A DNA stretch of 42,248 bases from a virus (IMGVR_UViG_3300045988_085462:1-42248), one strand, 5' to 3'. Numbered from the stretch's first letter, positions 3,253 through 42,248 are shown. A program made the numbers and translations. The notes: generated by a model not told the origin, from the letters alone.

Positions 3253-3480
3253 TTAACTATTAAAGGACTTCGCATTGGAAGCAAAACTAAAATATCACGT
3301 TTCTGCTTGCAAGGCAAGGGTTTCGACAAAACTAGTGCAAATAAAACAAAATCCCACACTTTGCCTACAAAGTACCCCGCGTGGCACGCAGGGCTTCGGC
3401 AAAGCAGGGGATTTCAGATATCCGCCCTCTTGTGCTTCTTCGAGAGGCCGGGTGGATTTGTTGATGTTATTTTACCACAA

Positions 3481-5469: not shown

Positions 5470-7737
5470 TCAGTTAATAGTTCTCCAAACACCCCCGAAT
5501 CCTGATTCAACGCATATCCACCCAATTGGTTCAGATTTGCCACACGCATCATTGTATAGTATAGTTCCTCTGTCCCAAAAGTATTGTTTGTCTTTCGGAT
5601 ATGATGTTACTGGGGGATGTATTTCAATTCTTTTGTTTTTTAATGTAGAACTCGTAAAATTATTGCAGAAGTTATTTTTGCCAGCAAGAAGAACATTGGC
5701 ATTTTCGCTTCCAGAGCTTTCAACCGCATATACACCATCAGCTAAAGCTATTACAGTTTCGCCATCGATAGTATGCCACGATTCTCCTTTCAAATCGAAA
5801 GTACATCCGGCTACAGCGCCTGTGGCAATTTTTACCAAGGGGTACATTCTTTCTTTCCATGGCATATAAAAACTGATATCGAGTTCGCTAAAAATTAACG
5901 AATACGCATAAATTAACGGGCTTACTGATTCTTTGCTGTGGGCTGTTATAACGCATTTTGTAAAATTGAATCTTGAAGTAATAAATCTTGAATCCAAGTC
6001 TCCGTAACCTAGTCTGAATATGCTTGTAGTGCATCTAGTAGATTCAAATTTACAAAAATTGAAAAAAATGTCGTTTGAACCTTCTTTAGACACCCATACC
6101 TGATTGAGAAAACTTTCCCAAGTGCAATTGTAAAATTCCAGTTGATTACATTGCCTATATTTGATTCCGTTCACGTCTGTATCGATTGATAGCAAAAATG
6201 ATGGACAAATCAAATTAGCATTTGTATAGTCTTTGCCAGAGTTCCAAAAATGACAATTATACCAAGAAGAATCCTGAACACCAGACATATCGAAATGAAC
6301 GCCATTTGAAATGATACTTAATCCAGAAAACTTACATAAAGCCATACCGCGTAATTTGAATAATGGACTTGAAAAGTATGTTTCTGCTTTATCTGTCATA
6401 TTATTAACGGAACGTATCGTAAAATTAGATATTTCCACCCACATGCATTGTTCGGCGTTTTCGGTATCGACAGAATCTCCTGCGCTTTCAAACATACTAA
6501 TATTTGATAAACGATACAAAACCGCTTGTCCTCTTCCAAGTCCTTTTACGGTTACTTTTGGGCGTACCTTTACTGTTGTTTTACAAATATATTCACCCGC
6601 TGGAAACATTATCACACATCCGTTTGGGTTATCACTTATTATTTTATTGGCGATAATTCCGAAATCATGTGTTTCATCTGCGCCATAGTTTTTTATGTTA
6701 TATTCTGGTGTTAAAATTCTGATAATAGGTTTATAATATGGATCATATACAGCAGGTGTGTCTTTTAACCCTATCATTTTGTATGGTTTGTCGAAAAAAG
6801 CATTTGGTAAAACAACCTTAATTTTTGAAGTCAACGGGTTTTCAATTTTATATAGAAAATCTACACAAGGGAATTGTATTGAACGTAATATAAATTTATT
6901 ATCTTCATCAAATTCAGCAACATATACGACATTTGTTCTGGTAAGCGTATTGGGATTAGAATTATCAGAAAAGGCAAACCAAAATTCATCTCCTAATTTT
7001 GCCGCAATATAACCTGTAATTGAATTGTCATCGCTTTTTTTTACATTTCCATTATCATCGATAATGGCATTTGGTGTTACATCATCGTTATCTAGCAGAT
7101 TATTAGGATATTGGGTGTATAGCACATCATTCTTTATATCGCTTAAATCTTCCTTTAGCTGACCTTCCACCCCCTTTGCTCTTTCGCTCTCCGCATTGAC
7201 CGCTTCTCCCACCTTTGCCGCATCCGCAGCCTTGCCGGAGAGGGAGAGGGTGGGGTCGATGGTATTTTTGAGCTCTTCAACCGCCTGGATCGCCTGCGTC
7301 CACGACTCATTAGAGACCTGCGTGATATAAAAAAAGCTCTGGATCTCTGCGGTGCTGTCATAGCGGTCGTTTTTGCAGTCGCACTCGATAGGCCAGCTCT
7401 TGAGCATATAGCCTTTTCCGGTCGTCACGCAGAGCACGATGCTCACATGGCCCGGCACCTGCAGTGCCTGACGTGCGATCTCGCAGGTGACAACGTTGCC
7501 GGACACGGCACAAGCTGCCCGCTTGCCTGCGCCATCGTTGATGGTATCGTACCAGCCCTGATTCTGGGGGCCGAAGCCACGGTACATGATGCTGTAGCTC
7601 GCCCCTGCAGGCGCAGTATACGCCTTTCCGTTTTCGTACAACGTCGCCTGAAAAAAACGGCTCTGGCTGTCGTTCTCCACCGCGCTGATGTGCTGCGGCA
7701 GACCGGGATTATCAAAGTCAATCCTGATTTTCTGCAT
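5470..7737 (-). CDS. Tail fibre / tailspike: BppU-like N-terminal anchor, conserved fibre junction, pectate-lyase-like beta-helix C-terminal part
   Basis: 755 aa. N-terminus ENDSQSRFFQATLYENGKAYTAPAG is BppU_N-like. SLSGKAADAAKVGEAV is a fibre junction motif. NIKNYGADETHDFGIIANKI..VIMFPAGEYICKTTVKV resembles the start of pectate_lyase_3 tailspike domains. Confidence 0.75.
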   Translation of the reverse strand: MQKIRIDFDNPGLPQHISAVENDSQSRFFQATLYENGKAYTAPAGASYSIMYRGFGPQNQGWYDTINDGAGKRAACAVSGNVVTCEIARQALQVPGHVSIVLCVTTGKGYMLKSWPIECDCKNDRYDSTAEIQSFFYITQVSNESWTQAIQAVEELKNTIDPTLSLSGKAADAAKVGEAVNAESERAKGVEGQLKEDLSDIKNDVLYTQYPNNLLDNDDVTPNAIIDDNGNVKKSDDNSITGYIAAKLGDEFWFAFSDNSNPNTLTRTNVVYVAEFDEDNKFILRSIQFPCVDFLYKIENPLTSKIKVVLPNAFFDKPYKMIGLKDTPAVYDPYYKPIIRILTPEYNIKNYGADETHDFGIIANKIISDNPNGCVIMFPAGEYICKTTVKVRPKVTVKGLGRGQAVLYRLSNISMFESAGDSVDTENAEQCMWVEISNFTIRSVNNMTDKAETYFSSPLFKLRGMALCKFSGLSIISNGVHFDMSGVQDSSWYNCHFWNSGKDYTNANLICPSFLLSIDTDVNGIKYRQCNQLEFYNCTWESFLNQVWVSKEGSNDIFFNFCKFESTRCTTSIFRLGYGDLDSRFITSRFNFTKCVITAHSKESVSPLIYAYSLIFSELDISFYMPWKERMYPLVKIATGAVAGCTFDLKGESWHTIDGETVIALADGVYAVESSGSENANVLLAGKNNFCNNFTSSTLKNKRIEIHPPVTSYPKDKQYFWDRGTILYNDACGKSEPIGWICVESGFGGVWRTIN

Positions 7738-14647: not shown

Positions 14648-14674
14648 GCAGGGTGTCCACAGTGGACACCCTGC
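14648..14674 (-). terminator. Hairpin or terminator containing the 19-bp palindrome GGTGTCCACAGTGGACACC (copy 1 of 3)
   Basis: GCAGGGTGTCCAC-A-GTGGACACCCTGC. On the minus strand it is followed by TTTTTTG, between the head-tail genes and the MTP gene. Confidence 0.65.
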
Positions 14675-23816: not shown

Positions 23817-23892
23817 TGGCATTCCCGGCAGGGACTGAGCCTGCAGCCTCTGGTTTTGGAGACCAGCGCTCTACCAATTGAGCTACGGGAAC
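23817..23892 (-). tRNA. tRNA-Trp (anticodon CCA), CCA-encoded, atypical T-loop
   Basis: Hand-folded: acceptor GTTCCCG/CGGGAAT (G1-U72), D-arm GCTC/GAGC, anticodon arm CTGGT-CTCCAAA-ACCAG, T-arm GCAGG-CTCAGTC-CCTGC, discriminator G, CCA. Confidence 0.75.
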
Positions 23893-23898
23893 ATATCA

Positions 23899-23971
23899 TG
23901 CCGCGTGCAGGAATCGAACCTGCAACGACCCGGTTATGAGCCGGATGCTCTGCCGGTTGAGCTAACGCAGC
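23899..23971 (-). tRNA. tRNA with anticodon CAT (elongator Met or Ile2), no encoded CCA
   Basis: Hand-folded: acceptor GCTGCGT/ACGCGGC, D-arm GCTC/GAGC, anticodon arm TCCGG-CTCATAA-CCGGG, T-arm GCAGG-TTCGATT-CCTGC, discriminator A. G1-C72 argues against an initiator. Confidence 0.8.
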
Positions 23972-24300: not shown

Positions 24301-24319
24301 GGTGTCCACAGTGGACACC
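24301..24319. repeat. 19-bp palindrome GGTGTCCACAGTGGACACC (copy 2 of 3)
   Basis: Exact match to 14652..14670 and 39866..39884. Confidence 0.9.
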
Positions 24320-24475: not shown

Positions 24476-24553
24476 ATTATAATTTTAGCACATCAAAATG
24501 GGACATTCTGGACATTTCGACCTTTTTGTGACATTCCGACCATTTTGTGACAC
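24476..24553 (-). promoter_or_regulatory. Candidate activator-dependent promoter: TATAAT (24481..24476, minus) with an upstream array of direct repeats
   Basis: Minus strand reads TGTCACAAAATGGTCGGAA TGTCACAAAAAGGTCGAAA TGTCCAGAA TGTCCCATTTTGATGTGCTAAAATTATAAT. No TTGACA-like -35. Confidence 0.4.
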
Positions 24554-24604: not shown

Positions 24605-24811
24605 TCAGAAAAACCCGGTCATTTTGAACACAAGACACGCCATTGTGTACCCAAGAACGCCGCCCAGCACGACAGATGCCGGTGTGAACACCATGAGTAT
24701 CTTCCGCACTGTCCACCCGCTTTTCCATGCCCATCGCACGGAAAGCATACACACCGGAATGCTCAAGCAAGCCATAAGTACAGTGGCTGCCAGCCAATAA
24801 AGCAAAAGCAT
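24605..24811 (-). CDS. Small membrane protein (68 aa, 2-3 TM segments)
   Basis: GGAGTG RBS. Hydrophobic sequence MLLLYWLAATVLMACLSIPVCML .. VVLGGVLGYTMACLVF. Confidence 0.6.
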   Translation of the reverse strand: MLLLYWLAATVLMACLSIPVCMLSVRWAWKSGWTVRKILMVFTPASVVLGGVLGYTMACLVFKMTGFF

Positions 24812-27129: not shown

Positions 27130-28545
27130 TTATTTCAGCTCAAAGTAATTCGTCAGAATATCCGTAATGCCGGAATAGAAACCTATCCAGCCGCAGGTGA
27201 AGAAGCTGTTGTCCTGCAGAATGATGGCGTAGTCATCACAGGTCTGACCGGCGTCCTCTCTGGTGGTGTCTACCCGCTTCCACATCGTTGCCCCGCCGGG
27301 CAGAGGCTGCTTGTAATACGCAAGCCGGAAACGCACATCTTCCCATTCCAGTTCCCACGCTGCATTTGCACCCAGCGTTTTTTCTGCCAGTTTGTGCATC
27401 GTGTTATTTCCACGCACGCAAATATTCGAAATTGCAGGACATTCTTCTTCTGCATTTCCCGTTTTTTCGGGTGCGGCTGCAGCATTCTCCGGTTCCATCC
27501 CACGGTTTTGCTCCACCCGCACTGTCTGGACACCCGCAGTTTTGTTTTCCACAGCAATGGCAGCATCCAAAGACAACCTTCCTCGATTTTGACTGCAAAT
27601 CCCATTTTCTAGGCACGCCTTCACAAATCTTGCCCATGTGAACGTAAACTCTCCATTTTTGCTGCCCCAGAATCGTATTTTGCCGTAGCTATAATCAACA
27701 AACCCATCTTTTAAGCTTTGTCCGCAAAGGTCGCCTTTTGCATCTATAAGGGCTTTTGCTGTAAATTCTTGAACTGATTTGACCCAATCTGATGCGCAAA
27801 CCTCTTTTGCGCATTCAAGAACCCATGCTGGGTACGCAGTTTTCGGTACCGTTTCCGCAGGTTCTTCTTTCTGCTCCGGTTCTTCCGGTGCAGCACCCAT
27901 AAAGCGCGCATAATCCTGTGCGCTGCGGTACGCTTCCATCAAACCGATCTCTCCGGCCTTCAAGCGCTCCTTGATGACCTCATTCTCGCAGGATGCAATC
28001 ACGTTCAGCCGGGCAGCAGCGCCGGTGGACAAGCCCAGAATGCGGCAAACCTCGTCTCGCACCTTGCCTTCCAGCTGTCCGGCTGCTTTTTTCTTGGTCA
28101 GCGCATCCTTCAGCGCCTCGTATTGCGCCAGACGCTCGCCATCGGTCAGGTCGCGGGCGGTAGCGTTCGCCGTGATAAGCGCAATGCGGTCATCCAGTTT
28201 GCCGTGGCTTTCCCTAATCAAACAGGGGAGAGAGTCAAACCGGGATTCTCCGCACGCCGACAAGATGCCACACGCAGCCCAGCGCCGGTGCCCGCTGATC
28301 AGCATATAGCGATCCGGGGCATCTTCCACCGGAATAACCTCCAGCGGCTGCCGGAGACCGTGCTGCTGGATATCATCCTTCAGACCATCCATGTTGCCGA
28401 TGGTATAGATCTCGTCATTGTCCGGGTTCGGGATGATATTCCGGCTCGGAATCATCACCACCTGCATCTGCTGCCCCGCCGGGGTGACCGTCTGGCTCTG
28501 GGCATTCATCAGGCTGTTCAACAATCCAGTGCTCATGTTATTCAC
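27130..28545 (-). CDS. parB: ParB-like protein (N-terminal ParB/Srx domain plus HTH) with a ~255-aa uncharacterised C-terminal extension
   Basis: IIPNPDNDEIY.. and LISGHRRWAA (GxRR box). Immediately downstream of and overlapping parA. Confidence 0.8.
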   Translation of the reverse strand: MNNMSTGLLNSLMNAQSQTVTPAGQQMQVVMIPSRNIIPNPDNDEIYTIGNMDGLKDDIQQHGLRQPLEVIPVEDAPDRYMLISGHRRWAACGILSACGESRFDSLPCLIRESHGKLDDRIALITANATARDLTDGERLAQYEALKDALTKKKAAGQLEGKVRDEVCRILGLSTGAAARLNVIASCENEVIKERLKAGEIGLMEAYRSAQDYARFMGAAPEEPEQKEEPAETVPKTAYPAWVLECAKEVCASDWVKSVQEFTAKALIDAKGDLCGQSLKDGFVDYSYGKIRFWGSKNGEFTFTWARFVKACLENGICSQNRGRLSLDAAIAVENKTAGVQTVRVEQNRGMEPENAAAAPEKTGNAEEECPAISNICVRGNNTMHKLAEKTLGANAAWELEWEDVRFRLAYYKQPLPGGATMWKRVDTTREDAGQTCDDYAIILQDNSFFTCGWIGFYSGITDILTNYFELK

Positions 28546-29332
28546 CCTCCACGCATTTTTTTACCAGCTGCGCCAGTGCCTTATACTGGGCGCTGGTCTT
28601 GATGTTCCTACAAACCTTGTGCACCGGCAAGTGCCGCGCCTTGGCTTCCTTGACCTTCACGCTGTAATCGATGCGCAAAATACTGTTGTCCGGGTTGCGG
28701 AAGGCGGGCAAGTCCATGTTGGCGATCTCATTGATGGTGTCCACACTGTACCTGCCACGGGTGTACTTGGTTGCCAGCACGCCCATCACTTCCAGTTGCG
28801 GGTTGTAGTTTTCCCGGATGGCGTCCACCTGCTCGCGTATCTCGTCCATGCCGTCCATCGCCCACTCATCGCAGTCAACCGGGATGATCACCCAGTCGGC
28901 GGCAGCCAGCGCATTGACGGTAGCCATGTCGATGTCAGGCGGGCAGTCGATAATGCAGTAATCGTAGTCGTTGTGGATGGTGTCCAGCGCCTTGCGCAGC
29001 CTGTCCCACTGCGGCCGCAGCACATCCAGCATCACGTTCTTGTTGGCAAGCAGCATCTCCATGTTGCTGGGTGCCAGATCAACGTGCTCAAAGTCCGTCT
29101 GCATGATCACATCCTGCATTTTGGCATTCAGGGTGAGCACGTCGCCCATGGTCTTGCGGCCATAAGCAAAGCGGTTGAAAAACTTGGTGGTGTTGCCCTG
29201 CTTGTCCAGATCCATCACCAGCACCCGCCGGGACCAGATCTCTGCCAGCAGGCAGGCGAGGTTGCAGGCGGTGACGGATTTTCCAACGCCGCCTTTTAGG
29301 TTGATGATCGCGATTTTTGCCATTGTTCTCAT
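28538..29332 (-). CDS. parA: ParA/Soj-family partition ATPase
   Basis: Deviant Walker A: IAIINLKGGVGKSVTACNLA. Also VLVMDLDKQGN. ATG at 29332 (an alternative is at 29323). Confidence 0.9.
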   Translation of the reverse strand: MRTMAKIAIINLKGGVGKSVTACNLACLLAEIWSRRVLVMDLDKQGNTTKFFNRFAYGRKTMGDVLTLNAKMQDVIMQTDFEHVDLAPSNMEMLLANKNVMLDVLRPQWDRLRKALDTIHNDYDYCIIDCPPDIDMATVNALAAADWVIIPVDCDEWAMDGMDEIREQVDAIRENYNPQLEVMGVLATKYTRGRYSVDTINEIANMDLPAFRNPDNSILRIDYSVKVKEAKARHLPVHKVCRNIKTSAQYKALAQLVKKCVEGE

Positions 29333-29348
29333 GACGATATCCCCATTC

Positions 29349-29525
29349 TCAAATTCTTGCGGCTTTTGCGGCCTGCTGCTGGATGCTGTCCCAGCTTTTT
29401 GCAAACCACGCAAGCCATGTTGTGCATTTCTTGTAATAATTCGGCGAGCACGCCTTACAGGGGCAGCTGCGGCAAGGGCTGCTCTTCGGGAGAGGGTAGA
29501 GCTCCTCGTTCCAAATCTCCTGCAT
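29349..29525 (-). CDS. Hypothetical small Cys/Trp-rich protein (58 aa); below the ORF-track cutoff
   Basis: GGAGG sits 9 nt before the ATG at 29525, which overlaps the rep stop codon by 1 nt. Sequence MQEIWNEELYPLPKSSPCRSCPCKACSPNYYKKCTTWLAWFAKSWDSIQQQAAKAARI. Confidence 0.55.
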   Translation of the reverse strand: MQEIWNEELYPLPKSSPCRSCPCKACSPNYYKKCTTWLAWFAKSWDSIQQQAAKAARI

Positions 29526-30400
29526 CAGCGCCTACCTCCTCCGCCAGCTGCGATGCTGTTGCCCTTTGCCTGATAGTAATGCTCCATGGTAGTGGGAGCG
29601 TTCAGCAGCACCGCCCGTATGTAGCCCCGGATATTGTGGACAGGCTTTGTGCTGTTGAGCAGGGCATCCAGAACGTACTCGATGTGCTGGCTGGTAAGCT
29701 TGTCCAGCCGCTTGCGGATGGACTGCGTGGTCTGCGGATACTGCCCGATAATCTGGATCGCGCCGGGGCAGCAGTACATATCCGCAATGTTGTCCAGCAG
29801 TTCCTCCAATTTCTCAGGCTCGTACCGGCGCTCCAGCGTGTCCAGTTCCAGCTGCTCCCGGAATCGTTCCAAGACATCCTCTCGTGCGGTATCCAATCCA
29901 TCCATCGTATCCGTTCCGCGCTCCTCGCGCGGATAGATAGGTTTCCCTATAGGTTTCCCTATATATTTCCTGTCTACACTTTTTGTAGGGGTCTGGATAC
30001 ACTTTTTGTAGGGGTTCGGATACACTTTTTGTAGGGGTACATTTTTTGTAGGGGTACAATTTTTGTAGGGGTCTGCGCCATCCTCCGGCACCGTTTCCGG
30101 CATCGGGTTTCGGACTGCAACGTACTGGTTCACGAGGATGCCGCCCACCATAGTTTTGAGCTCCTTCAGCAGCCCGCGTGCCACAAGCTTCTTGACGATG
30201 TTCCGGGCACCGTTTTCACTTAGCCCTATCCAGTCAGCAAGGTAGCCGTACCCGCCCTTATAGACGCTCTCGCCGTCCTGAGAGAAGCCGTAGATGATGG
30301 CATACACCGTCAGTTCGTTGCCCTCCAAGCCAAGCTCGGTGCGCATCCAACGCTGCAGGACAACGTAACTGTCCTGTTTCGGTTTTGTTTTACTTTTCAC
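29525..30400 (-). CDS. Replication initiator-like protein (N-terminal winged HTH, internal iteron-encoded linker, conserved C-terminal domain)
   Basis: N-terminal LGLEGNELTVYAIIYGFSQDGESVYKGGYGYLADWIGLSENGARNIVKKLVARGLL pattern. Five DNA iterons lie inside the ORF. Neighbours are ssb and parAB. Confidence 0.7.
   Translation of the reverse strand: MKSKTKPKQDSYVVLQRWMRTELGLEGNELTVYAIIYGFSQDGESVYKGGYGYLADWIGLSENGARNIVKKLVARGLLKELKTMVGGILVNQYVAVRNPMPETVPEDGADPYKNCTPTKNVPLQKVYPNPYKKCIQTPTKSVDRKYIGKPIGKPIYPREERGTDTMDGLDTAREDVLERFREQLELDTLERRYEPEKLEELLDNIADMYCCPGAIQIIGQYPQTTQSIRKRLDKLTSQHIEYVLDALLNSTKPVHNIRGYIRAVLLNAPTTMEHYYQAKGNSIAAGGGGRR
29937..29960. repeat. Tandem 12-bp repeat ATAGGTTTCCCT x2 (encodes GKPIGKPI)
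   Basis: ataggtttccctataggtttccctata, adjacent to the iterons. Confidence 0.8.
29980..30072. repeat. Five direct iterons TTTTTGTAGGGGT (spacings 23, 23, 17, 17 bp); putative origin of replication
   Basis: Copies start at 29980, 30003, 30026, 30043 and 30060, all in the same orientation and all inside the rep ORF. Confidence 0.8.
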
Positions 30401-34324: not shown

Positions 34325-34959
34325 GCTCTTTCAACTCCTTCTGTCTGCGCTGCCATTCCTTGAATTTGCCGTAGCTCATGCCCTTTGCTGCGGCAGCAGC
34401 ATTATCATCCACGATCATGTCGTGGTTGGTCTTGGGCTTTTCCTTGGGTTTTACAATGCCGGGCAGCGTGCCGGTGTCCACACTGGACTTTCCGTACCGA
34501 CGCTTTTTGCAAGCATCGCAAAACATTTTGCCGGGATCCACGCCGTACATCATCGTGCCGCACTCTTTGCAGGGCTTGTCTACCTTGCGGTGCCTGCCGC
34601 AAGAAAGCTTCTCCTTCGGTGCGGGCTTTGGAGGTGGTGCCAACTTTTTGATTTTCGGCTTTGCCTTCTGCAACCGCCGGGCACGTTCTCTTGCTTTTTT
34701 CCAGATGTATCTTCTCGCTGCAGGGAATGCAGTATATCCGGTTCGGCGCAGACCCCGCCGGGAGCGCCTTTCCGCACGCGGTGCAATAACGTACCACGGG
34801 CGGATTTGGGATTTCCCCGAGGATGTGCTTTTTCTGATAGTTGTGGTCGGTCTCTTTCTTTCGGAACTTGCGGCAGGCATCGCAGTACCGTCTTTGACTG
34901 CTGGTGCCTTCTGGCAGCACCGCGCCGCAATCTTTGCAGCGGCGAATAATATCACTCAT
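34311..34959 (-). CDS. Triple zinc-ribbon protein split into two overlapping frames at an A6 run (34695..34700)
   Basis: The frame starting at 34959 gives CKDCG..YCDAC and YCTACG..YCIPC. The +1 frame ending at 34311 gives PCKECG..FCDAC. The junction reads CTG GAA AAA AGC. Removing one A would fuse them into a ~215-aa protein. Confidence 0.55.
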
Positions 34960-35569
34960 GGGCTACACCTTCCTTGTTAGGTTTGCGGCGCATTGCGTAA
35001 CTATAAAACGTTCCGCGCGGCATTCCGCACATCTGGGACGCCGCCGAGCAGGTGACCTGCCCGCTTATCCATGCCTGATAAGCTTCCTCAAAGCCTTCTG
35101 TCACGCCTTTAAGCGGACGCCCAAACTTAACGCCCCGCGCCATGGCAGCGTCGATGCCTTCCCGCTGGCGCTGGCGGATGTTCTCGCGCTCCGTCTGCGC
35201 CACAAAGGCCAGCAGCTGCAGAACGATGTCGCTGATCAGCGTGCCGACAAGGTTCTTATCTGCACGGGTGTCCAGCAAAGGCATATCCAGAATCACGATA
35301 TCCACGCCCTTCACCTTGTTCAGCGCCCGCCATTGTTCCTGCACGTCCTTGTAATCGCGCCCCATGCGGTCTAAGCTTTTGATAAAGACCACATCGCCTT
35401 TTTTTAGCTTGCGCTTCAGGCGTTTCCATGCAGGACGGTCAAAATCCTTACCGGACTGCTTGTCCAGATAGATGTTCCCATCCGGCACACCGGCTTCCCG
35501 CAAGGCAATCATCTGCCGCGCTTCGTTCTGGTCGCGGGAGCTAACCCGCACATATCCATACTCAGCCAT
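34952..35569 (-). CDS. Small serine recombinase (resolvase/invertase family)
   Basis: GAGGAAG RBS then ATG at 35569. YGYVRVSSRDQN catalytic Ser motif. C-terminal HTH (SAASQMCGMPRGTFYSY). 205 aa. Confidence 0.9.
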   Translation of the reverse strand: MAEYGYVRVSSRDQNEARQMIALREAGVPDGNIYLDKQSGKDFDRPAWKRLKRKLKKGDVVFIKSLDRMGRDYKDVQEQWRALNKVKGVDIVILDMPLLDTRADKNLVGTLISDIVLQLLAFVAQTERENIRQRQREGIDAAMARGVKFGRPLKGVTEGFEEAYQAWISGQVTCSAASQMCGMPRGTFYSYAMRRKPNKEGVAHE

Positions 35570-36508: not shown

Positions 36509-36741
36509 GATATTGCGGTTATCATTTTTACTCTTGGCAACATTTTTGGGTTTGGGGCAGAAAGCAGATCGGAAGGTACGCGCGACCCTCTGCTTTTTGC
36601 ACCCGGTGCCCGCGCATAGGCACCTGATCAACAGGACGGTGTGGGGGAAGAGCCCCTGCTGCGTGGCAGCCCTGTGAAGTACCGGCAGCGATCGGAGAGT
36701 ATGGGGACTTCTGGTCAGCCGCTCGGTATGGTTTTATTATA

Positions 36742-36788
36742 ATCCAACTGCATCCAACTGTAAAGGCATTATTTGCATACAGTTGGAT
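36742..36788. promoter_or_regulatory. Operator-like sites: ATCCAACTG half-site x2 direct plus the inverted copy TACAGTTGGAT
   Basis: Sites at 36742..36750, 36752..36762 and 36778..36788. They lie next to a TATAAT (36738..36743) and just upstream of the XRE gene RBS. Confidence 0.55.
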
Positions 36789-37954: not shown

Positions 37955-38037
37955 AAGAAACACTCCTTTTTGTTGTATTCGGTAATTTTATGTTACAACT
38001 GTTATCCTTAAAAATCAAGAGAAAAGAGGAATTTCGA

Positions 38038-38727
38038 ATGAAAATTGCGGAAAAATGCAAAGTTGTTGTGGTGGGTAGCCTTGTGGCCGCTCTGATGGCA
38101 GGCACTGCATTGCCCGCGCTGGCCGCCAGCCCCGCCGGGGACGTTCCCTTTGCGGTGCTTGCGCAGCAGAATGACGTAAATGCCGACAAGGTGCAGGCAA
38201 TCAAAGACGCACTGGCTAAAATTGATGTATCATACGAGGATGGCATCTGGCTTTTTGAATCCGCTTACGAAAATTACGAAATAGACAATAACAAAAGCTA
38301 TGTGATGCCGTATGTGTATTCAAACGGTGAAACTGTCCGGTTTGGTATGAGCTTCACATCTCAGGATACCGAGGGCTATTTTTACTGGAACGATGTAGAT
38401 GTTCTGATTGGCGAATACAATAATTATACCAGTCAGACGAACTACAAATTTAAAAAGGTTTCGCGCCAGTACTATCCCGATGACCAGATTTTTTATGAAA
38501 ATATATCCTTTGGTGGTAACGACGAGGATATGGACTGCCTGAGCCGCATTCTGAACGCCGACACTGCATATCTGCGTTTCAATGGCGCAAAGGTCAACGG
38601 CACGCAAAGAACGCAGACCACGATCATCGATAGCGAAAGCCGACAAGGCATGACAGATATCATCAACCTGTACAACCTGCTGCAAAGCGCTACTGTTGAA
38701 GAACGTGTAGCCGCTTTCGGTACTTGA
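38038..38727 (+). CDS. Secreted protein (signal peptide, AxA cleavage-type site)
   Basis: ATG at 38038. MKIAEKCKVVVVGSLVAALMAGTALPALAASPAG. The C-terminal domain is paralogous to that of the next gene. Confidence 0.7.
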   Translation: MKIAEKCKVVVVGSLVAALMAGTALPALAASPAGDVPFAVLAQQNDVNADKVQAIKDALAKIDVSYEDGIWLFESAYENYEIDNNKSYVMPYVYSNGETVRFGMSFTSQDTEGYFYWNDVDVLIGEYNNYTSQTNYKFKKVSRQYYPDDQIFYENISFGGNDEDMDCLSRILNADTAYLRFNGAKVNGTQRTQTTIIDSESRQGMTDIINLYNLLQSATVEERVAAFGT

Positions 38728-38752
38728 TCAAAAGCATTAGGAGGAAAAAACT

Positions 38753-39859
38753 GTGCGTTTAAAGAAAAAGCATATTGCGGCAATTGCATTGAGCGTGGCT
38801 ATTTGCGTAGGTGCTACCGGTTGTAAATCGGAAGAAGTCAAGAATACGGAAAAGCTTATTAAAGAAATCGACAGCACCATCACATTAAGCAGTGAAAGCG
38901 CCATTGAACAGGCAGAAGCGGCTTACAACGCTTTGGGCGAAGAGCAAAAGGAAGTAAGCAACGCGAAGCAGCTTACAGATGCCCGCGCCGCATACGATGA
39001 GTTATATCAAAACGAGGTCGCTCCGGTCGAACAGGCAATAGCTTCTATTCCTGACGAAAGTGCCCTTCTGACGGACGATAACGCAGAAAAGCTTGTGGAA
39101 GCCGCACGCCTGTCTTACATCCACGCAAGCGAAGAAGCACAAGGCCTTGTTTCCAATTATTCTGTTCTTGAGAATGCTGAAAAAATTCTTGAAGATGCCA
39201 GAGTCCAAAACGCTATTGATGCAATCAACCAGATCGGTGACGTAACGCTGGAAAGTGCAGAAATGATCGAAGCTGCCGATGCCGCATATAATAACGTGGA
39301 ATCCACAAGACGGTCGGACGTAACGAATTATAATACGCTTCTGGATGCGCGCTCAGCGTATTCTACTTTGCAGCAGGAAGCCAAGGAACAGGCCAGACAG
39401 GAAGCTCTTTCTCGTTTAAAAAAGGAAACAGATACAGTTGAAAACAGAACTTGGTATTATCCTTCCAGTTATCCGAAGTATATTAACTCCAGAAGCTTTG
39501 CTCTTCCGTATCTTGGAGAAGTCGATGGAGGATTATATATGCGTCTAAAATTCGACTATGTTGGAGATGATTGGGTCTTTTTCGATCAAGTCATTATCAA
39601 TATTGACGGTAACGTTGTTGATACCATCGATTTTGGTTATACAGATGTTGAAAGAGATTCAGTATTGTACGGGCATCTTTATGAATGCGCAGATATTGCT
39701 CCCACAGATAGGCAAATTGAGATTTTAAGAAAAATCGCTGATTCTCAAAAGACTGTGATTCGCTTTAAAGGAAATTATGCGTATGATCTTACTGTTTCCG
39801 AAAAAGACAAACAAGGCATAAAAGACATTTTGGCAGTATATGACTCTGCGAATTTATAA
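38753..39859 (+). CDS. Lipoprotein with three ~43-aa helical repeats and a C-terminal domain shared with the 38038 gene
   Basis: AGGAGG RBS then GTG. MRLKKKHIAAIALSVAICVGATGC lipobox. Repeats have the form A..AY..L.......V.N...L..A...Y..L. Confidence 0.75.
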   Translation: MRLKKKHIAAIALSVAICVGATGCKSEEVKNTEKLIKEIDSTITLSSESAIEQAEAAYNALGEEQKEVSNAKQLTDARAAYDELYQNEVAPVEQAIASIPDESALLTDDNAEKLVEAARLSYIHASEEAQGLVSNYSVLENAEKILEDARVQNAIDAINQIGDVTLESAEMIEAADAAYNNVESTRRSDVTNYNTLLDARSAYSTLQQEAKEQARQEALSRLKKETDTVENRTWYYPSSYPKYINSRSFALPYLGEVDGGLYMRLKFDYVGDDWVFFDQVIINIDGNVVDTIDFGYTDVERDSVLYGHLYECADIAPTDRQIEILRKIADSQKTVIRFKGNYAYDLTVSEKDKQGIKDILAVYDSANL

Positions 39860-39863
39860 AACA

Positions 39864-39886
39864 AAGGTGTCCACAGTGGACACCTT
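39864..39886. terminator. Bidirectional hairpin containing the 19-bp palindrome (copy 3 of 3)
   Basis: AAGGTGTCCACAGTGGACACCTT lies between the convergent genes 38753..39859(+) and 39914..40162(-). A T-rich tract follows on the minus strand. Confidence 0.65.
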
Positions 39887-40436: not shown

Positions 40437-41054
40437 ATGGATGATTGGGTATTGCGCGTTGCGGAAACACTGGAAAAAGCAAGGGCAGAGGCCGGAATCA
40501 GCCAAGCCACACTTTCAAAGCGAATGGGCGTAAGCCGACAAAGCGTAATTAAGTGGGAGCAGGGCGTCAACGCGATATCCTTCCCCATGATGATGAAATG
40601 GTTTGTGGGCTGCGGCGTTTCGCTGGAGCGGTATCTGGATTCATGCATCCACCCGGGTCTGCTGGAACGGCTGGAAGACAGTCCCACCGACAAAGAAAAG
40701 CGCCGAATGCTGCACGAGGCCATCGAAGAATGCAGTGCATACGAGGTAGACACGCTCTTGTACATCCGCTACGGCGCGCACGGGTCGGACCATCTGAGCG
40801 TGCTTACCGAAATGGTGGCCAACCTGCACACGCCACTGCGGGATAGGGTGGCCGTGGTCAATACGATCCTGAGCCACTACGAGATCGCCATGGCGACAAA
40901 AACGGATGTGGACCCAGAAGGGCTGCAACCGAATATTGAAATGCTGTGTCAGGCGCGCGATTGCGGGATGGCAGCAGCAAAAGACATGGAAGATGTCTAC
41001 TCCATTAACAAGGAGGCAATAGAGGATGCCAAGAAAAAGAACGAAACGCGCTGA
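40437..41054 (+). CDS. XRE-family HTH regulator with a ~140-aa C-terminal domain (205 aa), co-oriented with and overlapping int
   Basis: AGGGGGA RBS then ATG at 40437. ISQATLSKRMGVSRQSVIKWEQGVNAISF is an HTH_3 pattern. The track ORF's 85-aa N-terminal extension lacks coding character. Confidence 0.75.
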   Translation: MDDWVLRVAETLEKARAEAGISQATLSKRMGVSRQSVIKWEQGVNAISFPMMMKWFVGCGVSLERYLDSCIHPGLLERLEDSPTDKEKRRMLHEAIEECSAYEVDTLLYIRYGAHGSDHLSVLTEMVANLHTPLRDRVAVVNTILSHYEIAMATKTDVDPEGLQPNIEMLCQARDCGMAAAKDMEDVYSINKEAIEDAKKKNETR

Positions 41055-42168
41055 CGGTCGGTACGAGATCAAGCGGAAAATGCCGGACGGAAAATATAAG
41101 CACTTCTTAGGCGACACGGTTGCCGAAGCAACTGCAAAGTATGAAGAAGCCTACCGGCAGGCAACGCTGGAAGAAAGCAAAAATAACGGCGGTGCTACCT
41201 TCCGGGAAATGGCAATAGCGTACAAAGATTACATTACAGGCTCGACAAAGCCGGTAAAACGTGGTACAATTAACGCCTACGTCAAGAATATCCCTCCGCT
41301 TCTGGAATGCTTTGGCGACACGCCGATGGCCGACATCGACACGCAGGCAGTCTGCGGATACATGGAGCGCATGAAGATGGACGGCAAAGCCTTGCATACC
41401 ATCACCAACGCTAAAAGCGTGTTATCCTGTATCTTTACCTTCTGGTGTGCCAACTATCACGGAACCAGTAACCCGGTTCTTCTGGCAAAACCGCCCGCCG
41501 GGATGAAAAAGGGGAAGCGATTAGAGCCGACAAAAGCGCAGCGGGATATTATTGACGCGCATCCAGAGGGGTGCGGTTTCTGGGCGCAGCTATTCGAGTA
41601 CACCGGGCTCCGTCTCGGCGAGGCAAACGGGTTGCAATGGAAAGACGTGGACTTTGAGCAGAATGTAATCCATGTGAGTTCCGCAATGCCGTGGGACCGT
41701 AACCGCGCCTATGAGGAAACGCCAAAGTCAGAGAAGGGATACAGAGATGTGCCCATCCTGACGACCTTTCGCCCGATGCTGTTGGAGCAAAAAGCCGGTC
41801 ACGCAGACACGGACTATGTAATGTCTGGTGAAGCAAAGCCGCTGTCGCAGTCGCAGTATGAGTGGCGCTGGGCAATCTACTGTCGGGATCTCGGCCTGAG
41901 TGAGAAACAGGAGAAGCGCGCCAGGATAAAGGATAAGCCGGGCGAGTACAGGGTGTACTACAAGTGGAAAGCGCTTGTAACGGCGCACCAGTTCCGGCAT
42001 TTTTACGCGACCAATCTTTTTTACGCCGGTATCCCGGACATGGTGGCCCAGAAACTTATGGGTCATGCAGACATTTCAACGACCCGAAAGATATACCAAC
42101 AATTGCGTGATGAAGAGGACAAGCAGTACATCGCAAAGCTGGATGCGTATGTCCAAAGCAAAAAGTAG
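41026..42168 (+). CDS. int: Tyrosine integrase (phage integrase family)
   Basis: AAGGAGG RBS. Contains TGLRLGEANGLQWKDVD (Arg box I), HQFRHFYATNLFYAGIP and LMGHADISTTRKIY (box II, H-x-x-R ... Y). Adjacent to attP. Confidence 0.9.
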   Translation: MPRKRTKRADGRYEIKRKMPDGKYKHFLGDTVAEATAKYEEAYRQATLEESKNNGGATFREMAIAYKDYITGSTKPVKRGTINAYVKNIPPLLECFGDTPMADIDTQAVCGYMERMKMDGKALHTITNAKSVLSCIFTFWCANYHGTSNPVLLAKPPAGMKKGKRLEPTKAQRDIIDAHPEGCGFWAQLFEYTGLRLGEANGLQWKDVDFEQNVIHVSSAMPWDRNRAYEETPKSEKGYRDVPILTTFRPMLLEQKAGHADTDYVMSGEAKPLSQSQYEWRWAIYCRDLGLSEKQEKRARIKDKPGEYRVYYKWKALVTAHQFRHFYATNLFYAGIPDMVAQKLMGHADISTTRKIYQQLRDEEDKQYIAKLDAYVQSKK

Positions 42169-42248
42169 GTCTGCAAAAAGTCTGCAAAAGCAATAAAAAC
42201 ACGACTTGACGCGATATAAAGGGGGTTCGAGTCCCCTCCCTCGCACCA
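42130..42248 (+). repeat. Terminal direct repeat, copy 2
   Basis: Identical to 1..119. Confidence 0.95.

Follow-up and report, generated by a model that had tools for sequence, protein, structure and literature searches.

Why would a temperate phage that integrates into a host tRNA gene also keep the genes with which a free circle of DNA could replicate and segregate? The question is posed by IMGVR_UViG_3300045988_085462:1-42248, a viral sequence of 42,248 nucleotides (nt) that was analysed over its whole length and is called the window below. An initial annotation had singled out positions 27130-30400 as a plasmid-style maintenance block coexisting with an integrase and a tRNA-type attP, and the four genes that it listed there, a replication initiator (Rep) with internal iterons, a small Cys-rich open reading frame (ORF), ParA and ParB, are all present. 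The window is a circularly assembled phage genome: bases 1-119 are identical to 42130-42248, and because of this 119-nt terminal repeat we take the contig to be a circle, as had been proposed, with a unit length of 42129 nt. It is best explained as an integrating temperate siphophage of gut Clostridia, in which phage structural genes are united with Rep, ParA and ParB in one element. Our analysis indicates that parA and parB are maintained by selection, associates them with a dispersed palindrome as candidate parS, and documents integration into a tRNA-Leu gene. The genes of the block, with lengths in amino acids (aa), are:

27130-28536, minus strand: parB; ParB_N at 26.7 bits against a cutoff of 26.3, phrog_4715 at 2e-34, Spo0J structure 1vz0 at 3.5e-6
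28538-29332, minus strand: parA, a 264-aa Soj-size deviant Walker-A ATPase; AAA_31 at 1.4e-46, CbiA, MipZ, phrog_164 at 3e-53
29349-29525, minus strand: 58-aa Cys-rich ORF (CxxCxCxxC) between rep and parA, its start overlapping the rep stop
29525-30400, minus strand: rep, replication initiator; Pfam HTH_36 at 4.4e-6, DUF6017 at 1.1e-16, phrog_270 'replication initiation protein'

ParA begins MRTMAK, and its Walker A sequence in translation, NLKGGVGKS, fits KGGxxK[ST]. ParB, whose true start lies 3 codons downstream of the start of a 471-aa ORF, has an N-terminal ParB/Srx domain with GHRRWAA (a GxxRxxA box) followed by a helix-turn-helix (HTH), RILGLSTGAAARLNVIAS; residues 25-169 align by sequence to the Spo0J (1vz0), ParB and Noc structures. 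The parA-parB overlap is 8 nt in the window. With a Walker-type ParA, a ParB made of N-domain and HTH, and the adjacency of the two genes, the locus has the predicted make-up of a type I ParABS system, for which we propose a candidate parS below.

Conservation was surveyed in 31 IMG/VR loci of the family, many of which reach only part of the genome. ParA is 97-100% identical in every locus that reaches parA (26 full-length), and in the alignment ParB residues 1-225, HTH included, are invariant in the family. They are followed by a swappable middle cassette (approximately residues 225-385; one version is Cys-rich) and a conserved C-terminal domain of ~85 aa; the C-terminal half has no Pfam match. 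Ratios of nonsynonymous to synonymous substitution (dN/dS), given as means of the window against 25-26 relatives, are 0.039 for parA, 0.096 for the N-terminal part of parB and 0.14 for its C-terminal part, with ssb at 0.24. These low values show strong purifying selection on parA and parB, which are therefore not relics and appear, as far as substitution patterns can tell, to be functional, conserved genes. The 58-aa ORF, which has no family match in Pfam or PHROGs, is kept at 81-100% identity in 26 relatives, with a dN/dS of 0.13.

The family occurs in a very large number of human-gut assemblies, with 1071 ParB relatives at E <= 1e-5. The parA-parB cassette is also found in several further groups of phage contigs, most of which come from the one IMG/VR metagenome collection. 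In all 57 of the distant loci that extend upstream of parB, parA lies directly upstream, sometimes with one small ORF between. Relatives L001-L007 have an extra ORF of 107 aa or 163 aa without family match at this junction and the L207-L209 group has a 128-aa HTH_3 protein; the window is without any such ORF. C-terminal additions also differ within the ParB clade: two cultured phages with ParB relatives, Saumur and Cormatin, carry a DUF3850/ASCH domain (5.6e-27; L085:32694-33200, minus strand) and Cys-rich cassettes, respectively.

The initial annotation had suggested looking for parS-like palindromes, and a perfect 19-bp palindrome, GGTGTCCACAGTGGACACC, is a candidate. It occurs three times in the window, with none expected from shuffles, and every copy is intergenic:

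14652-14670, palindromic: candidate parS-1, GGTGTCCACAGTGGACACC, in a 36-nt gap between two tail-region genes
24301-24319, palindromic: candidate parS-2, GGTGTCCACAGTGGACACC, where the early region gives way to the tRNA and late region, ~3 kb downstream of parB
39866-39884, palindromic: candidate parS-3, GGTGTCCACAGTGGACACC, between convergent genes in the lysogeny and cargo module

Candidate parS-3 is kept in all family loci that cover the int side, and a 17-mer of the palindrome recurs without mismatch at the syntenic positions of 57 retrieved loci, even where the ParB cassette is divergent. The canonical Firmicutes (Spo0J) parS, TGTTTCACGTGAAACA, is absent from the window even at 3 mismatches. 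Just upstream of parS-2, a 285-nt intergenic region holds tandem repeats at 24511-24552 (19 nt x2.2) and 24620-24661 (21 nt x2.0); these could be regulatory sites for the switch from early to late transcription.

The palindrome follows the ParB clade into phages that are otherwise unrelated to the window phage. By tblastn Cormatin has only ParA (33%) and ParB (34%) in common with it, and Cormatin carries three dispersed copies of GTGTCCAACTTGGACAC (half-site GTGTCCA) together with an GTGTCCGAATCGGACAC variant at the 5' end of parB; one of the Cormatin sites lies about as far from parB as candidate parS-2 does in the window. Among phages whose ParB is 42-54% identical, GTGTCC-N3-5-GGACAC has 81 matches in 410 kb, spread over 23 of 23 loci, with one copy regularly ~35 nt upstream of the parB start, at the parA/parB junction; 585 kb of control loci contain no match. 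More distant ParB groups have GTGTCCG-type sites beside parB, and on a 56-kb Clostridium perfringens plasmid with conjugation genes, which encodes a ParB of 35% identity, there are five GTGTCCCC-GGGGACAC palindromes, including one in the interval from parB to parA. The half-site also tracks the recognition helix of the protein: GTGTCCA goes with (G/A)RLN(A/V)I and GTGTCCG with ARMEAI or ARYSAI, and in Saumur, whose ParB helix reads GRYKSI, the palindrome is another one. Sites of the 42-54% group vary freely at their central 3 nt, and a T-run occurs at only 1 of 52 unique sites, which argues for protein sites and not terminators. Since the palindrome tracks the ParB clade across unrelated phages and a plasmid and is missing from the controls, we consider it a candidate dispersed parS. 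The association between palindrome and ParB clade is shown by these sequence comparisons, and we infer from it that ParB may bind the palindrome.

How the circle might be replicated is suggested by rep and the repeats that lie inside it:

29937-29970, adjoining the iterons: 12-nt tandem repeat ATAGGTTTCCCT x2.8 (Tandem Repeats Finder, TRF)
29970-30072, inside rep: origin iterons, 5 copies of TACAnTTTTTGTAGGGG, at spacings of 23, 23, 17 and 17 (repeat search, TRF)

Read in the sense of the gene, the iterons are CCCCTACAAAAAnTGTA, with a 17-nt unit. An AlphaFold2 model of Rep built with 22 homologues has a winged HTH at residues 12-98, a linker at 100-168 with pLDDT <50 and a helical domain at 169-270, so the iteron DNA is predicted to be the coding sequence of a disordered linker. 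Rep is 94-99% identical in most family loci that reach rep, and five loci carry other alleles (36-38% or 65% identical); where the Rep alleles differ the adjoining ParA stays 97-100% identical. The loci with other alleles have iterons CCCGGGAAAAATTTTCC in place of CCCCTACAAAAAGTGTA in the same layout, with three 17-nt and three 23-nt spacings, and the 12-nt repeat ATAGGTTTCCCT is found again in relatives with the same Rep allele. The iteron sequence thus changes with the Rep allele, which implies allele-specific matching of initiator and iterons. The comparison shows iterons co-varying with alleles and characterises Rep as a putative phage-type, origin-in-gene initiator; its dN/dS is 0.11.

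An origin within the initiator gene is the classical lambdoid phage arrangement. "Plasmid-style" was consequently too strong a term for Rep. A fold search with the Rep model gave only weak, generic winged-HTH matches (DnaD-N and RepA_N among them), all with E >7e-3, and none that would assign a structure to DUF6017. DUF6017 proteins also adjoin conjugation genes on Clostridial and enterococcal elements, and a phage-like 60-kb plasmid of Lachnospira eligens has an HTH_36 homologue next to a loader and a DnaB helicase. Searches of the early region by ORF, Pfam and PHROGs checks found no ORF large enough for, or matching, a helicase, primase or polymerase. Because the phage encodes none of these, its replication would be host-dependent, in agreement with the initial annotation.

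The same genome encodes the means of integration that had been proposed for it, a tyrosine integrase and a tRNA-type attP:

41026-42168, plus strand: tyrosine integrase, Phage_integrase at 1.1e-20
42169-42189, plus strand: GTCTGCAAAAA x2 on the P arm, with a second pair at 233-253 on the P' arm (TRF; conserved in relatives)
42221-42248, plus strand (also 92-121 after circularisation): attP core, identical to the tRNA-Leu(GAG) 3' end, from the T-arm through CCA plus AA

The tRNA 3' fragment, GGGGGTTCGAGTCCCCTCCCTCGCACCA, follows the int stop after a gap of 52 nt, and the GTCTGCAAAAA pairs are probable arm-type sites for the integrase. Every family locus that reaches the region has int, in alleles of 98%, 70% and 65% identity, and int and parAB co-occur in every family locus that extends far enough. 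This co-occurrence across the family, together with dN/dS values of 0.04-0.14, speaks against the proposal that the element is in transition between lifestyles.

Integrated and circular forms, which the initial annotation had suggested searching for, are both found in public data. A search of IMG/VR with the core and P' arm recovered 23 stretches, of which 17, with the int-side arm upstream, are attP, 5 are attL and 1 is cut at the core. The attL stretches (L062, L067, L073, L074 and L077) have a complete class-II tRNA upstream; for the four loci containing the gene in full, ARAGORN identifies it as tRNA-Leu(GAG). An independent scan via the DUF7841 gene that adjoins attP found the same five attL contigs against 15 attP contigs, and an ENA contig with the exact DUF7841 protein of the window (L205) also carries attL. 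Contigs from Logan stop exactly at the core edges, on the right in two cases (L055, L056) and on the left in one (L200), which is the expected pattern for an assembly graph that branches where attP and attL or attR occur in one sample. The two ends of one IMG/VR contig (L063/L067) differ: one carries attL, the second an overlap of attP type. The attR-specific pattern (P arm, core and AAV) was found neither in IMG/VR nor in Joint Genome Institute (JGI) metagenomes, a negative that is not informative, probably owing to trimming of provirus flanks and to the small number of gut samples at JGI. Integration into the tRNA-Leu gene is real and is the documented resting state of these phages.

Many contigs of 40-43 kb run through an intact attP, and a complete attP-containing contig of 41,980 nt (L008) was binned into a Clostridiales metagenome-assembled genome (MAG). 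Two long contigs were considered as integrated copies and rejected. In the first (L048, ENA ERZ28617394 scaffold_347, 85,198 nt) int is followed by a phage arm and not by host DNA; the contig is about twice a 42.6-kb unit with an intact attP in its middle, carries the serine recombinase discussed below, and represents a head-to-tail dimer (concatemer or multimer) unless it is an artefact of assembly. The second (L050/L197, ENA ERZ28662823 scaffold_192, 48,414 nt) is a full circle, 100% identical to the window all the way round, plus a jump to a related fragment beside bacterial genes. It leaves the window at ~38790 and not at attP, entering a diverged lysogeny-module fragment with holB, birA, a Metallophos_2 gene and an rsmI-like gene; probably the assembly jumped here into what is left of a related prophage in the host.

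Other long contigs are recorded here as observations. IMGVR_UViG_3300045988_076039 (96,834 nt; L065, L088, L119) has a single attP-type junction and continues for ~55 kb beyond the portion read, which could be host flank, a second phage or a chimera; it was not among the results of the DUF7841 scan. Contigs of 75,603 nt (L002) and 63,187 nt (L006) are also much longer than the unit genome. A Logan contig from SRR13867110 (L202) encodes a DUF7841 protein identical to that of the window, but the tRNA-like sequence after it, TTCGACTCC, is not tRNA-Leu; this fits a model in which the 70% and 65% integrase alleles target other tRNA genes.

When the partition genes would act depends on how they are expressed. 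The minus strand carries the structural, lysis and early genes, and the plus strand carries a lysogeny module at ~36.8-42.2 kb with HTH repressors, cargo genes and the integrase; gene tables of relatives include TerL, portal, ClpP and capsid. One promoter candidate bears on the early operon:

36736-36764, minus strand: best sigma-70-like promoter of the early operon (ssb, rep, parA, parB), TTTACA-17-TATAAT, 11/12 matches

Around rep-parAB the genes overlap or lie 11-17 nt apart, and a crude sigma-70 scan found no notable internal promoter or terminator from 36764 to the terminator after the tRNA genes at ~23.67 kb. Taken at face value, this weak evidence would place rep-parAB under the lytic/lysogenic switch. 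An active ParB on three chromosomal parS sites would be awkward for an integrated prophage, and expression from the free circle only would avoid the problem.

Altogether these data lead us to favor, with a probability of roughly 0.45, the model of an integrating phage whose early operon supplies a replicating, ParABS-segregated episomal phase that is transient or conditional. We envision a scenario in which the N-terminal winged helix of Rep binds the five iterons within its own linker-coding DNA, much as lambda O does, and the C-terminal DUF6017 domain recruits the helicase and primase machinery of the host, a step we presume because the phage encodes no helicase or primase. ParA and ParB would constitute a chromosome-type ParABS system of Soj/Spo0J or IncC/KorB kind, in which ParB dimers would bind the three dispersed 19-bp palindromes (14652, 24301 and 39866) and probably be loaded, as CTP-dependent clamps, onto a large part of the 42-kb circle, with nucleoid-bound ParA-ATP positioning and separating the copies. 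Since rep-parAB lies inside the early lytic operon it should be expressed only when repressor is absent, and ParABS should therefore act on the extrachromosomal circle: after infection and before integration, after excision, or when attB is unavailable. The outcome would be an actively inherited episomal phase besides the prophage integrated at tRNA-Leu. The timing of expression, the role in segregation and the duration of the episomal phase are all deduced here from gene content and order.

Several observations weigh against this model. No gene of the window receives an equivalog-level NCBIfam assignment: ParA falls below its equivalog cutoff (ParA_partition 89.7 vs 180), and ParB, barely above the Pfam cutoff for ParB_N and below the TIGR00180 cutoff, reaches no curated equivalog threshold. 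On the minus strand, T-rich tracts follow two of the three palindromes of the window, and these two could double as transcription terminators. The sigma-70 consensus scan is crude, its 13 matches against 11.0 in shuffled sequence not lying above expectation, and an internal promoter could keep rep-parAB on during lysogeny. Finally, the attP circles of the metagenomes could just as well derive from virions or from replicating phage DNA.

That last ambiguity bears directly on whether the circle could be a resting state in its own right, a low-copy plasmid prophage kept indefinitely by Rep-iterons and ParABS, with tRNA-Leu integration as the other option and the plasmid state used, for example, where attB is absent or occupied. 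The complete replicon and partition set held under strong purifying selection alongside int is what such dual lysogeny would call for, and the attP-containing 41,980-nt contig in the Clostridiales MAG would fit it. The nearest plasmid-borne relatives of ParB, with the same palindrome type, serve partition in real plasmids of C. perfringens; in the plasmid prophage N15 partition works via dispersed single palindromic centromeres, IR1-4 (PMC7205306), and other phages have been proposed to alternate between an integrated and an extrachromosomal state (PMC7969092). However, no separate promoter was detected for rep-parAB, which would be transcribed together with the early lytic genes, unlike the situation in P1 and N15; no multimer-resolution gene is conserved, and attL makes up about a quarter of the IMG/VR junctions. 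The cultured relatives that bear ParAB are chromosomal, and blastn against PLSDB found no plasmid resembling the block at the DNA level. We therefore consider indefinite plasmid lysogeny less likely than a transient or conditional episomal phase, and because attP circles are ambiguous, attL is documented and PLSDB has no match, we do not class the element as a phage-plasmid.

Less probable again is that ParB and its palindromes, with ParA as partner, have as their main role the global regulation or organisation of phage DNA, in the manner of KorB, and not its inheritance. The sites lie dispersed at module boundaries (lysogeny/cargo, early/late and head/tail) and not clustered beside parAB, and the par genes would be expressed with the lytic early genes. 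Conceivable roles include silencing or insulating the late and lysogeny modules at long range, loading SMC, and placing replicating genomes for efficient replication and packaging, as with AlpAC of CGP3. KorB of RK2 is described as acting both in partition and as a silencer of sliding-clamp type (PMC11790492), and the prophage CGP3 needs a plasmid-type segregation system for efficient viral replication after induction (PMC4446434). The variable cassette and C-terminal domain that ParB has in addition, DUF3850/ASCH in Saumur, might also suit such a role. Yet the strict, clade-wide pairing of parA with parB and the very strong constraint on ParA are what one would predict if ParA drives transport, members of this ParB clade serve real plasmids, and regulation and partition are compatible in any case. 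Phage-plasmids can integrate and then lose their plasmid genes (reviewed in PMC11652158), which raises the prospect that the par genes are relics of a plasmid-prophage ancestor and the palindromes, two of three of them before T-rich tracts, repeated terminator hairpins. The dN/dS values of 0.04-0.14, the 97-100% identity of ParA in all family loci that reach it and the retention of the cassette across many phage groups contradict this, as do palindrome arms that are conserved across unrelated phages while the centre varies, the T-run at 1/52 unique sites and the absence of palindrome matches in 585 kb of control DNA. Selection and conservation largely refute decay, which we regard as nearly excluded.

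The initial annotation had also counted a serine recombinase, with Rep, ParA and ParB, as part of the maintenance set:

34952-35569, minus strand: small serine recombinase, 205 aa; Resolvase PF00239 at 1.5e-28, phrog_125 'DNA invertase', residues 6-207

Rep, ParA and ParB remain members of the set, and counting the recombinase with them is the one weak point of that annotation; the recombinase is missing from 31 of 31 IMG/VR relatives and from most ENA and Logan relatives, being present only in the window, L048 and L054, and the window holds no inverted or direct repeats near it that would suit a res-like site or an invertible segment. In L055 the same variable stretch encodes a 281-aa tyrosine recombinase. 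Judged by this distribution, the serine recombinase is an accessory gene outside the conserved module; a role in dimer resolution is possible but unsupported.

Some features of the genome lie apart from the replication, partition and integration modules. Between the lysis genes and attP, positions 3350-3413 (minus strand) match the full length of the Rfam model DUF3800-VIII RNA (RF03075) at 75.5 bits, against a gathering score of 40.2. Complete genes for tRNA-Trp(CCA) and tRNA-Met(CAT) lie at 23817-23971 (minus strand), between the early and late regions, and are conserved in L002 and L006. A 755-aa tail or receptor-binding gene (5470-7737, minus strand) has a faint Pect-lyase-like match, with GC content down to 0.33 at 6001-7000; relatives have an 830-aa Metallophos or an 852-aa Polysacc_deac_1 protein at this position, and the gene looks like a swappable host-range cassette. 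A variable slot between the immunity region and int (37990-39859, plus strand) holds ORFs of 245 aa and 368 aa in the window, and in relatives (L048, L055, L207) either a 500-aa protein or an RNase_T/BRCT protein; it probably contains defence or anti-defence cargo. One distant IMG/VR contig that bears ParAB has ~25 CRISPR-like repeats of CGCGCCCCGCACGGGGCGCG at a spacing of ~67 nt at the contig end (L166:34-1641).

If ParABS stabilises the unintegrated circle, lysogeny in slow-growing gut anaerobes would include an episomal stage that has been overlooked, and this would affect prophage counts in metagenomes, the reading of 'circular viral contigs' and the carriage of phage without attB. A broader and more tentative proposition, which we think rather doubtful as it stands, is that a large clade of temperate phages of gut Clostridia joins integration with a functional ParABS whose parS consensus is YGTGTCCA-N3-TGGACACR, giving a heritable, partitioned episome that would serve, where integration is late or cannot take place, as a genuine second type of lysogeny or as a long-lasting carrier state. 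Were the episome heritable, it would break the 'integrase or parABS' dichotomy drawn from actinobacteriophages. With a candidate parS and two cultured, genetically defined relatives at hand, Cormatin of F. plautii YL31 and Saumur of E. clostridioformis YL32, the question is directly testable. The ingredients of the system are known; what appear to be undescribed are the conserved combination of int, Rep and ParABS, the dispersed parS motif and the breadth of the clade. The window phage has no close relative in INPHARED by megablast.

For replication the nearest parallels are lambda O with ori-lambda and the Rep/ori of P335-type lactococcal phages, in which iterons lie inside the initiator gene, are matched to its allele and serve host-dependent replication; in lambda O they fall in the DNA that codes for a flexible linker between the DNA-binding N-domain and the C-domain. 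Rep differs in having HTH_36 and DUF6017 with no Phage_rep_O match, and no ORF for a P-like helicase loader was found in the window. Rep thus works like lambda O but is not a member of the lambda O family.

For partition the resemblance is to plasmids and plasmid prophages with scattered centromeres. The sop genes of N15, like the rep and par genes of P1 and N15, are expressed in the lysogen. N15 shares with the window phage a lambdoid-type temperate lifestyle, a Walker-type ParA, an HTH ParB and several single palindromic centromeres of 16-19 bp, its SopAB system having four dispersed inverted repeats, IR1-4, and no integrase (PMC7205306). N15 is however a linear plasmid with a protelomerase, whereas the window phage is circular, uses int and attP and has parAB in an early lytic operon; the two have no sequence relationship beyond the superfamily. 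On RK2, KorB has 12 dispersed OB operators. The IncC/KorB pair of that plasmid likewise joins a Soj-size ParA to an HTH ParB-CTPase and uses dispersed single palindromic sites for both partition and gene control (PMC11790492). RK2 differs in being a conjugative plasmid with another site sequence, and no KorA-like partner was identified in the window phage.

Cultured counterparts are Cormatin (Flavonifractor) and Saumur (Clostridium), prophages of the OMM12 strains: like the window phage they are temperate phages of gut Clostridia in which a ParA-ParB pair ends the replication module, both ParB proteins share the architecture of the window ParB, and Cormatin has 3-4 dispersed GTGTCCA palindromes. 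They differ in that only ParA and ParB are detectably homologous (33-44% identity), in their other replication proteins (a DnaB helicase in Cormatin) and in their integration enzymes (an IS30-like DDE enzyme in Saumur). Both are chromosomal prophages in closed isolate genomes and form virions (PMC10197239); the searched passages of that paper make no mention of their par genes. CGP3 of Corynebacterium glutamicum offers a precedent for an integrated prophage whose plasmid-type segregation system, AlpAC/alpS, acts on excised, replicating DNA (PMC4446434), although that system is a type II, actin-like ParM-type one rather than a pair of Walker ATPase and ParB. Switching back and forth between integrated and episomal forms has also been suggested for some phages and phage-plasmids (PMC7969092; PMC11652158).

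The best-studied case of parABS in temperate siphophages is that of the cluster A mycobacteriophages such as RedRock and Miko, which have parA, parB and parS and in some members a RepA initiator. There parABS replaces the integration cassette at the same genome position, so that the two are mutually exclusive and interchange, and parS consists of arrays of 8-bp direct repeats flanking the par genes (PMC7157519). In the family of the window phage, by contrast, the candidate parS is a dispersed palindrome, and int and parABS occur together wherever both are reached, the family keeping together under strong purifying selection what cluster A phages exchange one for the other.

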